64,000 nt of DNA from Pseudogymnoascus verrucosus (lineage: Eukaryota), in NCBI GenBank assembly GCA_001662655.1, contig KV460215.1; one strand, given 5' to 3'. Below are positions 59,015 to 63,538 of the stretch, in pieces; the first letter of the stretch is position 1; each line of letters begins with the position of its first letter. The position numbers were made by a program, and so were the translations under genes. The notes beneath the pieces are model-generated. The model was not told where the DNA came from. It ran no database searches and saw nothing but the letters and a program-made list of their open reading frames with translations.

Positions 59015-60223
59015 TCATATAACCCTAACCCCCCTCCCTACACTCCCCGTCTCAAAAACCTCCACCATCCCCGCCCCCACACACTCCCTCACCACCCACC
59101 CAAACTCCACCCCCCAAAACACCCTCCACCACCTCGTCCTCCCCCTCGCCACCCCAAACTCCCCCCTATCCCTCCTGGCCTCACTCCCCCTCCCCGCACC
59201 CTCCACACCCCCCTCCCACCTCTCCCTCAACCCTTCCTCCGTCATCTCTCTAAACCTCGTTTTCCCCAGCACACCCACGAGATGCGTCCGCGCTGAAGTC
59301 AGGAGTTTGAGATAAGCACCCACGTTCGGGACGGAGACGCTGTAATCACCCATCCCCCCTGCTGAGGAGCCGGCGCGGCCGCCACTACCGCCAGCGGCGT
59401 GGACGACGCCCTCGTTGCCGACTTTCCCGACGCCTCCGCGCGCGGCGGAGGCGATGCTGGTTAGACTCGCTAGGGTCCCTCGCGCCCCTTGTCCAGGGGC
59501 CGAGAAGACATCAGCAGCTGTCCATGTCGGTGTCGCGGCTGTAATAAAACCAGCTTGCATGAGCTGCCTCGCTGCGTCTTGTGACAAGCTCGATCTCGGT
59601 AGTTTGAGCGCCGTCGGCTGCTCTCGGAGTAACTTGATATAAGCCGCTTTGACGGCGTCGTCGAGGGTGGTGGAGGAGTTGATTAGCCCCTCCAGGTCGC
59701 GCGTTAAAATCAGCAACTCCCCCGCGCCTCCACGCCCAGGGATGACGAGTTTCCGTATCGTCCCTTTCGCAGTCAACTCCGCGATCTCGCGCGCCACAGC
59801 GGTAGGCGCGTGCAGTAGCGCTTGCACATGCGACACCGTCGCTACCGGCGGTAGTGCGCGGCGGAAATTCAGGATCTCAGCAGTGCGAGTAGAGCTTAGC
59901 CCCGAGCGCGTGGGCGGGATAGGTGTGAATGTATGCGTAGTGATATGGAGGATTGCTTGCGGGACGTCGCGGAGTGTGAGGTCTGTGAGGAGGGTGTGGA
60001 TTAGGCCCGCGTCTGGGAGGCGGGCTGTAGGATCGGAGGAGGAGGAGGAGGGGGTGTCGTCGTCGGAGTAGTCATCTTGGGATTGCTGTTTGGAAGAGCT
60101 CCCTGCGCGCGCGATGGGTTTGCGACGGGGGAGGGAGGAGAAGGCGCAGGAGGGGCGGCGGGCGCTGGCGGGGTTGGATTTCTTGATGCGGCTTGAGTGC
60201 GCGGCGGTGGTTTGGAAGGACAT
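59015..60223 (-). CDS. STK19-like ('serine/threonine kinase 19' family, winged-helix DNA-binding) protein
   Basis: Intronless 402-aa ORF with LNFRRALPPVATVSHVQALL..PT...REI..L...G.IRKL, LMQAGF, SVPNVGAYLKLL and CVGAGMVEVFETGSVGRGVR. It has no kinase motifs. Family recognised from recall. Confidence 0.75.
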   Translation of the reverse strand: MSFQTTAAHSSRIKKSNPASARRPSCAFSSLPRRKPIARAGSSSKQQSQDDYSDDDTPSSSSSDPTARLPDAGLIHTLLTDLTLRDVPQAILHITTHTFTPIPPTRSGLSSTRTAEILNFRRALPPVATVSHVQALLHAPTAVAREIAELTAKGTIRKLVIPGRGGAGELLILTRDLEGLINSSTTLDDAVKAAYIKLLREQPTALKLPRSSLSQDAARQLMQAGFITAATPTWTAADVFSAPGQGARGTLASLTSIASAARGGVGKVGNEGVVHAAGGSGGRAGSSAGGMGDYSVSVPNVGAYLKLLTSARTHLVGVLGKTRFREMTEEGLRERWEGGVEGAGRGSEARRDRGEFGVARGRTRWWRVFWGVEFGWVVRECVGAGMVEVFETGSVGRGVRVI

Positions 60224-60648
60224 TGTGCAGTGGTGGCGTGGTGGTTCACGGGGGATAAAGGAATGTGATGTGAAGCAACGCAGCTTCGGGTATCATGGGT
60301 GAGAATGAAAGAAATGTAATCCGCGACGGAAGAAGAAGAATGTTATGCGGACGCAATGAGTCGTGGTTGTGATGATTCTCCAAGGCTGTCGTGCGCAGCC
60401 ACTCAGGTGCTCGTATGCATCAGAAGTGGCGGGATGTTCGGCGGGTGGGTAAACTTTAATCCAGCCTGGTGCCTGCCACTTCATGCCGAGCCAATAATGT
60501 GGGGCGAATGTTGAGGTGAATGAAGAGGTGAATGTTGACTCAAAGACCGCCGCTACTGTCCAATAACACTCACATAAAGAGAAGCCAATTGATTATTTTC
60601 CTATAAATCTGTGCCATAAGTCGAACAAAAACCACAGAACAGTTCACA

Positions 60649-61498
60649 ATGGCGCCAACTATCATTTTAATCCGTCATGCACAGGCTGAGCATAGTACGT
60701 ATCAACCATCACCCCGCGCCAGAGATGGAAACAATATACTAACCTCCCTCAGATGCTACCAATAAGTCCCCCCCAACACCGCAAACCCCCCTCATTGCTC
60801 TCCAAACCTAACACTCCCTACAGGACTATTCCATCCCGGATCCCGCCCTCACCGTCCTCGGCGCTGGTCTCCAATGCGACGCCCTCCGCGCAGCCCTCAA
60901 GGAGCTCCCCCTAGAAATTGACCTCATCGTCTCGAGCCCCATGCGGCGCACCCTGCAGACTACCACTAACGCTCTCGGCTGGCGCATGGCAGAAGGCTGC
61001 CCCGCAATCGCCCTCGCTGAGTTCCAAGAGAACTCCGCGAAGCCATGCGATACGGGCTCTGACGCCGCGGCCATGGCGGCGGAGTGGCCGGCGTTCGATT
61101 GGAGCGAGGTTGACCCTGTGTTCCCTGCCAAGACGGGGCTTTATGAGTTTTCGAAGGATGGGCTGACGCGGAGAGGGGTGGAGGCGCGGAAGTGGTTGAG
61201 GGGGCGGAAGGAGAAGGTCATTGCTGTGGTGTCGCACGCGGGGTTTCTGAGGGTGGGTGTTAGCTATTGCCAATATGCCAATGCGGATTTTAGGGTCTTT
61301 GAGTTTGCGGAGGGGGAGGAGGAGGTCGGGGGGAGGCTGGTGGAGTGGGAGTTGACGGAGGAGAGAGCGGGTGGGTTGGGGAAGAGCGAGAAGGGTGTTT
61401 TTGGGTGGGAGACGCAGCATTTTCCGGAGGAGAAGGTGGAGGAAGGGGTTCCGGCTGAGGATGCGCAGGGCGCGAGCGCGGTGAAAGTTGCTTCGTGA
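60649..61498 (+). CDS. Histidine phosphatase / phosphoglycerate mutase-like protein; exons 60649-60694, 60753-60761 (9-nt microexon), 60822-61498
   Basis: LIRHAQAEHN, IPDPALTVLG..QC, LIVSSPMRRTLQT, QENSAKPCDTGS and IAVVSHAGFL. The first intron is canonical; the second gives the right frame only as AT-AC. Confidence 0.88.
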
Positions 61499-61724
61499 GG
61501 GTGAGGAGAGGGGTTTGGTTTGAGGTGGCATTTTGGGAAGCGAGGTGTTGGCACGTTTTGGTGCGACGTGAGATTTGGAGAGGCGGCACGTTTTGGTATG
61601 GTATGGCATTTGGAAAGCATGCTGTCAATATGCGTTCTTGCGTTAGTTTTGGAGGCGGATAGATTTCCTTTTGGGGAATATTCGTTTCTTGCATTAAATT
61701 AGAGGTCTGATAGACTTTTTTTTA

Positions 61725-61850
61725 GATAATATGTATATTTTATATTTTGTCTTATTTTAAATGCTCGGAGAATATTTCCCGAATTTACAGAAGTATATTT
61801 TATGTTTTTCCTTGTTTTAAATGCTCCGAGAATATTCCATGAATTTACAC
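61725..61850. repeat. Very AT-rich tandem duplication (about 60 nt unit) at the boundary of the right-hand block
   Basis: GTATATTTTAT.TTTT..CTT.TTTTAAATGCTC.GAGAATATT....GAATTTACA occurs twice. Confidence 0.75.
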
Positions 61851-62101: not shown

Positions 62102-62793
62102 TTACGAAAGACATTTTCCAAGTTCTTCTATCCCCAAAGAGTCAATAAAACCGCGTTTAGCTGGAAGAGGTCCGCCTATCACGGCGCAAGAGTCAAAATC
62201 GACTAAGATTGCATTCTCGCTCTGTATTGTTGGGAACATGACATTGGATGCTTTGACGTCGTTATGGGCCAGATTGAAGCAGTGAAGATGGGCAATGGCT
62301 GCGCTGATCTGATTAACGACAAGTGCCTTGTTTATTAACAAACCTCTTGCCTTCCTTTCTTCAGCAGTCTCAGCATAGCGCTGAAAGCAAAGGCTGCAAT
62401 TCGGCCCTCTTGCACATAACATCCAAGATACCTAGCAACGTTTGGATGGGAGTTCTGCATCAAAATCTCGCATACGCGAGCCTCTTGAAGGATCAAATGA
62501 GCAAGAGCGGGAGTGCTGTCGTATGCAGTAAGACGGGGTTTCTTGATATAGATGTCAGGATTGGTAGGGTCGTCGCAGACGGTAAGACCCCCCTCAAGAA
62601 GTGGCCAAATGTGCCCCCGGAGAATCTTTTGGGGGTTGAGGGCATTGATGCTTTCGGTGTCGAGTTTAGGTCGGCGCTCTTTAGACTGACAAAAGAAGTA
62701 ATCTCCGCCGTCTTTAAAAACGATTTGTGTATAAAGATGTTCTGCTGGGTCTGTATCAAAACTCCACTGCTGAGCTGATCTCGCTACCTCCAT
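62102..62793 (-). pseudogene. Frameshifted small protein-kinase-like gene
   Basis: The N-lobe (YIKKP..QEARVCEILMQNSHPNVARYLGC..EGRIA) is in one frame. The C-lobe (LCFQRY..AIAHLHCFNLAHNDVKASNVM..ILVDFDSC) is in another, needing +1 nt near 62394, with no intron signals. The ORF ends soon after the DFD motif. Confidence 0.8.
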
Positions 62794-63538
62794 GTTGTAT
62801 GGGGATCTACGATAAAGTTCGTTGACAGACGGCTTTCGAGTTTTGGAAATTAGCTTTAAGGACCCACTTGTCGTGTTTTATAGAACAGGTATGTTTGTAA
62901 GTTGGAGCCTTTTCGCTGATTGATGGTCGAGAATTTTACTGTGATGTCGATATGCTACTAGACCAAACAGAACTCTATGTCATTTCCTGCGATGTAGAGC
63001 CTCTCTAGCACGTGTTTGCTTCTGTCCTCAGCCTGCAGCGATGATTGAAGGTATTGCGCGTTTAGAATGAATGGTGTTTCGAGTCGTAGTTATTTGAGGT
63101 TGCCGTCTAGACTCGTATTGAGTTCCGCAGATTGGGGAACCCCGGTGCATGTTTCCTAATGTTGTCCTGCAGCTAATGTCATGGTGCAGCTGCCTGCAGT
63201 ATCCCAACTGAAGGCTCAGCGCCAATGTATTTTCCTCAGTACCCCTCCCCAGCCTCGTTTCGTTTCTTGATTCTTGAACTTCATCTTTCTCTCAACTCTT
63301 TGTCCCTGGTCGAATCGAATTGTCTGAGACAGTTTGCGACCATCTTCGTGAGCGCGAGCTTCTCCATATGGGGTGCAGCATCACCTAGCAGGGGTACATA
63401 GGGTGTTGCAGCGAGCGATTATCCGCAGCCCTTCAGCTACAATTTTCTACTTGCAGAGCAGCATATTAGCTGAGGCGAATCCTTGGACAGCATATAGGAC
63501 TTTTCATAGCATCTAGGGCTGCTTGGCAGCTTGATATC

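Follow-up and report, generated by a model that had tools for sequence, protein, structure and literature searches.

A probable U2-type AT-AC intron behind a nine-nucleotide microexon in a histidine phosphatase gene of Pseudogymnoascus verrucosus

We propose that the second intron of a histidine phosphatase gene in Pseudogymnoascus verrucosus is a genuine U2-type (type II) AT-AC intron whose removal is required to make the enzyme, and we put the probability of this reading at about 0.88. The gene was read in a 64,000-nucleotide stretch of DNA (contig KV460215.1 of assembly GCA_001662655.1), which is called the window below. Its pre-mRNA loses a GT-AG intron 1, keeps a 9-nt microexon, and loses a 60-nt intron whose first and last bases are A60762 and C60821. 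Mechanistically this is nothing new: introns of this kind are known from animals, reports of them exist for fungi, and the exact product of the gene is already public. The parts of the gene are given here by window position, X7 being a sequencing run from a relative that is described below.

60649 to 61498, + strand: histidine phosphatase gene, with ATG at 60649 and stop at 61496-61498 (model rebuilt by script)
60597..60648, + strand: 5' untranslated part, as far as the X7 contig reaches (X7 record 14)
60649..60694, + strand: exon 1, MAPTIILIRHAQAEH plus the first base of an Asn codon, ending ..GAG CAT A
60695..60752, + strand: intron 1, GT-AG, 58 nt, phase 1 (GTACGT..CTAAC..CAG), absent from the X7 contig
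60753..60761, + strand: microexon ATGCTACCA, 9 nt, the nine letters between 60694 and 60822 in X7
60762..60821, + strand: intron 2, AT-AC, 60 nt, phase 1, C-rich (30 C in 60)
60762..60767, + strand: 5' splice site ATAAGT of intron 2, the U2-type GTAAGT consensus with G1 changed to A
60808..60812, + strand: putative branch-site motif CTAAC of intron 2 (CTRAY is kept among relatives)
60819..60821, + strand: 3' splice site TAC (YAC) of intron 2; the X7 contig resumes at 60822
60821..60823, + strand: CAG overlapping the junction, canonical-looking and unused, which pairs with GT 60695 in wrong public models to give a 129-nt intron
60822..61498, + strand: exon 3, the remainder of the His_Phos_1 domain, with stop TGA at 61496-61498

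The microexon supplies the last two bases of an Asn codon, the codons for Ala and Thr, and the first base of a Lys codon. Unspliced, the frame reads HNATNKSPPTPQTPLIALQT and hits TAA at 60809-60811, and once 60762-60821 is excised the frame is open over 243 aa and reads HNATKDYSIPDP; with both introns removed, the restored frame is RHAQAEHN-ATK-DYSIPDP. Within 60753-60823 GT occurs once, at 60766, and pairing it with the CAG at 60823 breaks the frame. Exon 1 encodes the histidine phosphatase fold's catalytic RH motif, and the predicted stretch LIRHAQAEHN is present only if both introns are removed as described. The RHG-type N-terminal motif carries the phospho-accepting His. Judged by its domain match, the gene product is predicted to be a branch-1 histidine phosphatase, phosphoglycerate-mutase-like: the full model (public protein P0140) scores 59.6 bits against Pfam PF00300 (His_Phos_1; cut-off 21.7) over profile positions 1-159 of 194, and exon 3 alone scores 42.6 bits over positions 21-159. 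The positions that the original prediction had assigned to the introns, the microexon, ATAAGT, CTAAC, TAA and GT 60766 were all confirmed by reading and by script.

Could ordinary splice sites produce the same enzyme? In the original prediction, pairing GT 60766 with the CAG at 60823 and skipping the microexon were both out of frame. We enumerated 421 canonical models from the ATG (one or two GT/GC..AG introns, any AG), 69 of which are open to 61498, so that "no canonical solution" is too strong on frames alone. What stands is that none of these 69 open models gives the conserved spacing of HN, three residues and DY. Among the best 120 homologue clusters the RH motif occurs in 20, ten of which have HN, three residues and [DEN]Y, with well-modelled orthologues reading, for example, HNATRDY, HNVAKDY and HNVNKDY. 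The nearest canonical model, in which HN is followed directly by DY, would depend on a GCTACC donor and an exon of 2 nt; it is contradicted by the X7 contig and was rejected.

Four runs were compared with the window (X2, X7, X13 and X20). X7 is a run of a relative that is about 96% identical and is putatively RNA, its junction being read against the window's DNA. One of its contigs, of 439 nt at a depth of 11.5, places 98 nt on 60597-60694 (with one other letter), then the microexon, then 332 nt on 60822-61153 (with 13 other letters in the 332). Both introns are missing from this contig, the second cut falling between 60761 and 60822, and the junction that had been predicted from the window, GCTACCA joined to AGGACTA, is present in it exactly. 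Exon 3 is covered by X7 record 14 (60822-61153) and record 15 (61431-61700), and among all contigs of the run on this locus none lies inside intron 1 or intron 2. X2, from another relative, has an unspliced 2310-nt contig across both introns, which over 60695-60823 shows a single difference from the window, at 60797, among the differences listed; X13 and X20 have contigs on parts of exon 3 only, where the junction is uncovered. The spliced window model is identical over 243/243 residues to the public protein P0140, which is P. verrucosus VE01_03346 (OBT98813.2, XP_059319888.1), and this splice is thus already implicit in the public gene model.

A profile of 16 orthologues retrieved 45 related metagenome loci. 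In 19 of them (L001-L007, L009, L013-L016, L022, L024-L026, L029, L030, L032) a GT-AG intron 1 of 45-59 nt, in the same phase, is followed by a 9-nt microexon and then by an AT..AC intron of 46-85 nt. Five more (L017, L018, L019, L021, L023) are without intron 2 and have a long intron 1, and a GT-AG intron after a microexon was seen in none of the 45. At this phase-1 site GT-AG occurs only in one outgroup-like locus, L033 (110-236), whose GT-AG intron (GTAAGA..AAG) interrupts the codon that intron 2 interrupts, in the same phase, and which has no intron 1. Two further outgroup-like loci also differ: L020 (105-237) seems to require an ATGAGT..CCAC intron that lies two bases off and in phase 0, a GT-AG intron there being out of frame, and L031 (1380-1500) has no intron at the site and a one-base frameshift in its His codon. 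L037 is built differently. Nine loci (L008, L010, L011, L012, L027, L028, L034-L036) have no visible 5' end, and an RH motif was not found within 900 nt upstream of L034 and L035. The remaining eight are weak loci with 41-residue matches (L038-L045), outside the comparison. It had been suggested that orthologous loci might show AT-AC either conserved or alternating with GT-AG: it is conserved, in 19 loci, and no alternation with GT-AG was found in the orthologue group, where the site holds AT-AC or no intron.

The intron alignment had 20 rows (the window and 19 loci), with 15 distinct intron-2 sequences (the window and 14 others), and the microexon is 9 nt long in 20/20 rows. In intron 2, A+1, T+2, A+3, G+5, T+6, A-2 and C-1 are each found in 15/15 distinct sequences, the variable sites being +4 (A 12, C 2, T 1) and -3 (C 11, T 4), and the interiors have a median identity of 0.50. 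Seven invariant positions set against so divergent an interior put the feature far beyond chance. In 14 of the 15, CTRAY stands at a distance of 9-11 nt from the 3' end. In these loci intron 1 has G14 T14 (A11 C3) N G14 (T13 A1)..A14 G14, with CTRAY at 9-13 nt from its 3' end in 14/14. Intron 2 and its GT-AG neighbour have in common TAAGT at +2 to +6 (+4 varying in both), a CTAAC whose distance to the 3' end is 10 nt, and a pyrimidine as the third-last base. Since the signals of the two introns match, intron 2 differs from its neighbour only in its first and last base.

How might such an intron be removed? Given its signals, and given that Ascomycota are reported to have no minor introns, the major spliceosome would be expected to remove it, with U1 and U6 reading +2 to +6 and U2 reading CTAAC, and with A60811, 10 nt before the last intron base, as the presumed branch A. 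The second step would accept an A at +1 solely on account of the C at the last position; if that terminal A-C pair is what permits the step, the CAG lying two bases further downstream would consequently be ignored. In yeast and human U2-type introns a G1-to-A change is rescued by a last-G-to-C change, less efficiently, according to the available part of PMC1557818. In Ascomycota and Basidiomycota minor introns are reported absent and most or all minor snRNAs lost (PMC10639083, in the portion available), in agreement with the original prediction, which took Pezizomycotina to be without U11/U12.

A quick maximum-likelihood tree of 52 rows, with SH-aLRT support only, left out L027, L030, L031 and L032 (fewer than 120 stitched residues) and L038-L045; L036 and L037 have long branches and an unsafe placement. 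The AT-AC loci are spread through an ingroup (support 88) with named Leotiomycetes, among them Pseudogymnoascus, Hyaloscypha, Oidiodendron, Oculimacula, Rhynchosporium, Drepanopeziza, Botrytis and others, the Leotiomycetes placement of the metagenome loci being that of this quick tree with named proteins. The ingroup includes a Pseudogymnoascus paralogue clade (L004, L006, P0062). The five loci without intron 2 form one clade (support 95), nested beside the AT-AC locus L007, so a single loss suffices as explanation. Long branches outside the ingroup carry L020 and the GT-AG locus L033. We infer that the intron position is probably older than its AT-AC state, and that the AT-AC change arose once, before the sampled ingroup split, the intron having afterwards been kept or lost as a whole. 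We count the 19 AT-AC loci as one retained event of common origin and not as independent events. An origin from a U12-type intron was considered and set aside for this gene, as AT-AC is confined to the ingroup and the outgroup-like locus is GT-AG at the same site. More speculatively, the state may have arisen in one step, a G1-to-A change having moved the 3' site upstream from an AG to a nearby AC; an AG lies within three bases after the AC, in the first three bases of exon 3, in 11/15 distinct sequences. Among the public proteins of Botrytis, Monilinia, Sclerotinia and Acephala, P0028, P0030, P0035, P0039, P0050 and P0059 read HNVS-HKA-RNY or HNVS-NKS-PNY, and the Sclerotiniaceae/Acephala models are three residues longer there than other orthologues. 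A modelling artefact, with an ATAAG donor read through to a nearby GT, could account for the additional H-K or N-K; so could a real shift to GT-AG.

What keeps the AT-AC state in place? Most likely it is a frozen accident: a change back at just one end would break splicing, so that no way out has been seen other than loss of the entire intron, and persistence would need no function because such one-end reversion should be deleterious. We think it unlikely that selection keeps the AT-AC ends as a compatibility code protecting the 9-nt microexon. Under such a code, the G-first donor of intron 1 could not finish the second step on the C-last acceptor of intron 2, and an A-first donor could not use an AG. 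With ends so incompatible, the two introns would not be cross-joined, and the microexon, which completes the catalytic Asn codon, could not be skipped via the AC site. AT-AC is indeed present in 20/20 microexon rows, though these have one origin, and in the GT-AG locus L033 the upstream intron is missing, and with it the microexon. However, the AG in the first three bases of exon 3 (11/15) would be usable by the intron-1 donor, so the protection would be leaky.

Other readings of the same stretch have to be weighed against a U2-type AT-AC intron. One concerns only its borders: in the window the cut slides by one base, A standing at both 60762 and 60822, and TA..CA borders (60763-60822) yield the same mRNA as AT..AC. 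We find the TA..CA borders scarcely credible. In L015 and L022, which are called Cadophora-like because their protein cluster includes Cadophora proteins, the two possible cuts give a different residue, R or K, and six ORFs fit only the AT/AC cut there: for P0127, P0128, P0129, P0132 and P0134, 60/60 tested residues fit it and only 10 fit the TA/CA cut, and P0034 compared with L015 gives an exact 80-residue prefix when intron 2 is cut at AT/AC and one of 28 with the other cut. Three of the first five start upstream of the true ATG and were therefore presumably called on intron-less transcript contigs. These transcript-derived ORFs of a relative settle the borders as AT..AC. Moreover, AT and AC are invariant in 15/15 distinct sequences while the next base, after AC, varies between A and G, and taking AT as the border places TAAGT in register with the U2 consensus. 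In P0034 (L015:2329-3410) the AT-AC intron and a downstream intron have been removed and the GT-AG intron 1 retained; on this single ORF, the AT-AC intron is not always the last to be removed. That the donor is truly GT and was altered by an assembly error, or that the gene is dead, has next to no chance of being right. The idea draws on the Pseudogymnoascus 90% cluster, in which seven of eight members are shorter than 243 aa and, of the seven members read (P0136 aside), six have other or truncated N-termini, P0140 alone having the catalytic one. These wrong models are explained by predictors that force GT 60695 to AG 60823: an out-of-frame ATG at 60677 with the forced 129-nt GT..AG intron 60695-60823 gives a protein starting MHRLSIDYS that is 226/230 identical to P0001, and P0001 and P0141 both have this start, a model that skips the microexon and loses the RH motif. 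The same A..C ends are found in 19 loci and in the contig of the relative sampled in X2 (among the differences listed), the frame is open for 243 aa with the RH motif intact, and relatives have spliced transcripts.

AT-AC termini are also those of the classic U12 subclass (PMC1557818, in the part available), and intron 2 might accordingly be thought a minor-spliceosome intron, which we consider very improbable. Its donor is ATAAGTCC and not ATATCC, a donor absent from all 20 rows; the TCCTTRAY branch motif, sought in the last 40 nt, occurs in 0/20 rows; and +4 varies among A, C and T, as in U2-type fungal donors. In addition, Ascomycota are reported, in the available text of PMC10639083, to be without minor introns and most minor snRNAs. 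The prediction of an AT-AC intron with U2-type signals after a microexon is thus borne out, with ATAAGT, CTRAY and YAC kept and U12 motifs in 0/20 rows. The U2-type AT-AC intron had further been proposed to be a slow, regulated splice that limits expression. Engineered A1/C-last introns are less efficient than GT-AG ones, as far as the available part of PMC1557818 goes, and a retained intron 2 would hit the TAA at 60809, yet we regard a rate-limiting role as quite improbable and found it unsupported. Only the fully spliced form was assembled in X7, a weak hint from a single contig; P0034, with intron 2 removed and intron 1 retained, likewise offers one weak hint that the slow step is not the AT-AC intron; the intron has simply been lost from five related loci; and the two-mutation barrier to reversion explains its conservation equally well.

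The closest known systems are the U2-type type II AT-AC introns of human SCN4A and SCN5A and of human and fly TAF2 (Sheth et al. 2006, PMC1557818; available in part, as for all statements from this source), which have the same AT..AC termini with U2-type 5' and branch sites and whose borders are conserved among orthologues, as they are here. This class is very rare, with 24 of about 610,000 introns in the survey table (PMC1557818). Unlike those cases, the intron described here is fungal, 60 nt long, and directly follows a 9-nt microexon, and whereas dependence on the major spliceosome was established for SCN4A and SCN5A by snRNA depletion, here it would follow from sequence signals. To U12-type AT-AC introns the likeness is in the terminal dinucleotides only, ATATCC and TCCTTRAY being absent. 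The engineered yeast and human double mutants with G1-to-A and last-G-to-C have the same compensating terminal pair, but they are laboratory constructs of lower efficiency, whereas this is a natural intron that has been long retained (PMC1557818).

In fungi, AT-AC introns are rare in annotations (PMC7072748). The available part of PMC11590231 gives 13 for Ganoderma lingzhi (0.014%), one of them Sanger-confirmed in a zf-C4pol gene; AT-AC is among the Sanger-confirmed non-canonical sites of Fusarium graminearum (PMC3577648, in the part available); and fungal xylanase genes have been hypothesised to hold AT-AC introns (PMC1557818). As far as those sources were available, these cases are also rare, occur in fungi without a minor spliceosome, and break automatic gene models; they differ in gene and lineage, and here the ends have been traced through many related loci. 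Among the matches listed from the literature on AT-AC introns, Leotiomycetes included, a description of this intron was not found, and no title among them indicated a fungal mechanism paper linking AT-AC, microexon and exon skipping. The "AT-AC" of PMC3091305 refers to polyketide-synthase domain strings and is irrelevant to introns.

As to the surroundings of the gene, its divergent upstream neighbour (window 59015-60292, - strand) is of the Stk19 family (Pfam PF10494, E 1e-88), and the start codons of the two genes are about 400 nt apart. Just past the 3' end of the phosphatase gene lies an AT-rich stretch (window 61733-61849) of two tandem copies of a 60-nt AT-rich unit with 85% matches. Further on (window 62102-62877, - strand), a protein-kinase-like frame extends over two overlapping ORFs, with a Pkinase score of 29 bits, below the cut-off of 31.7; the split may reflect an intron or a decayed gene.

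The site is skipped or truncated in named models from Cadophora, Rhynchosporium, Mollisiaceae, Diplocarpon, Oidiodendron, Tricladium and Claussenomyces. Because this intron breaks gene prediction, pipelines for filamentous ascomycetes need to allow ATRNGT..YAC introns. Beyond annotation, a natural A1/C-last intron, long retained in a phylum without the minor spliceosome and accompanied by an ordinary neighbour intron as an internal control, may be of use for studying how the first and last nucleotides are proofread in the second splicing step, and for studying the origin and persistence of a two-mutation state.
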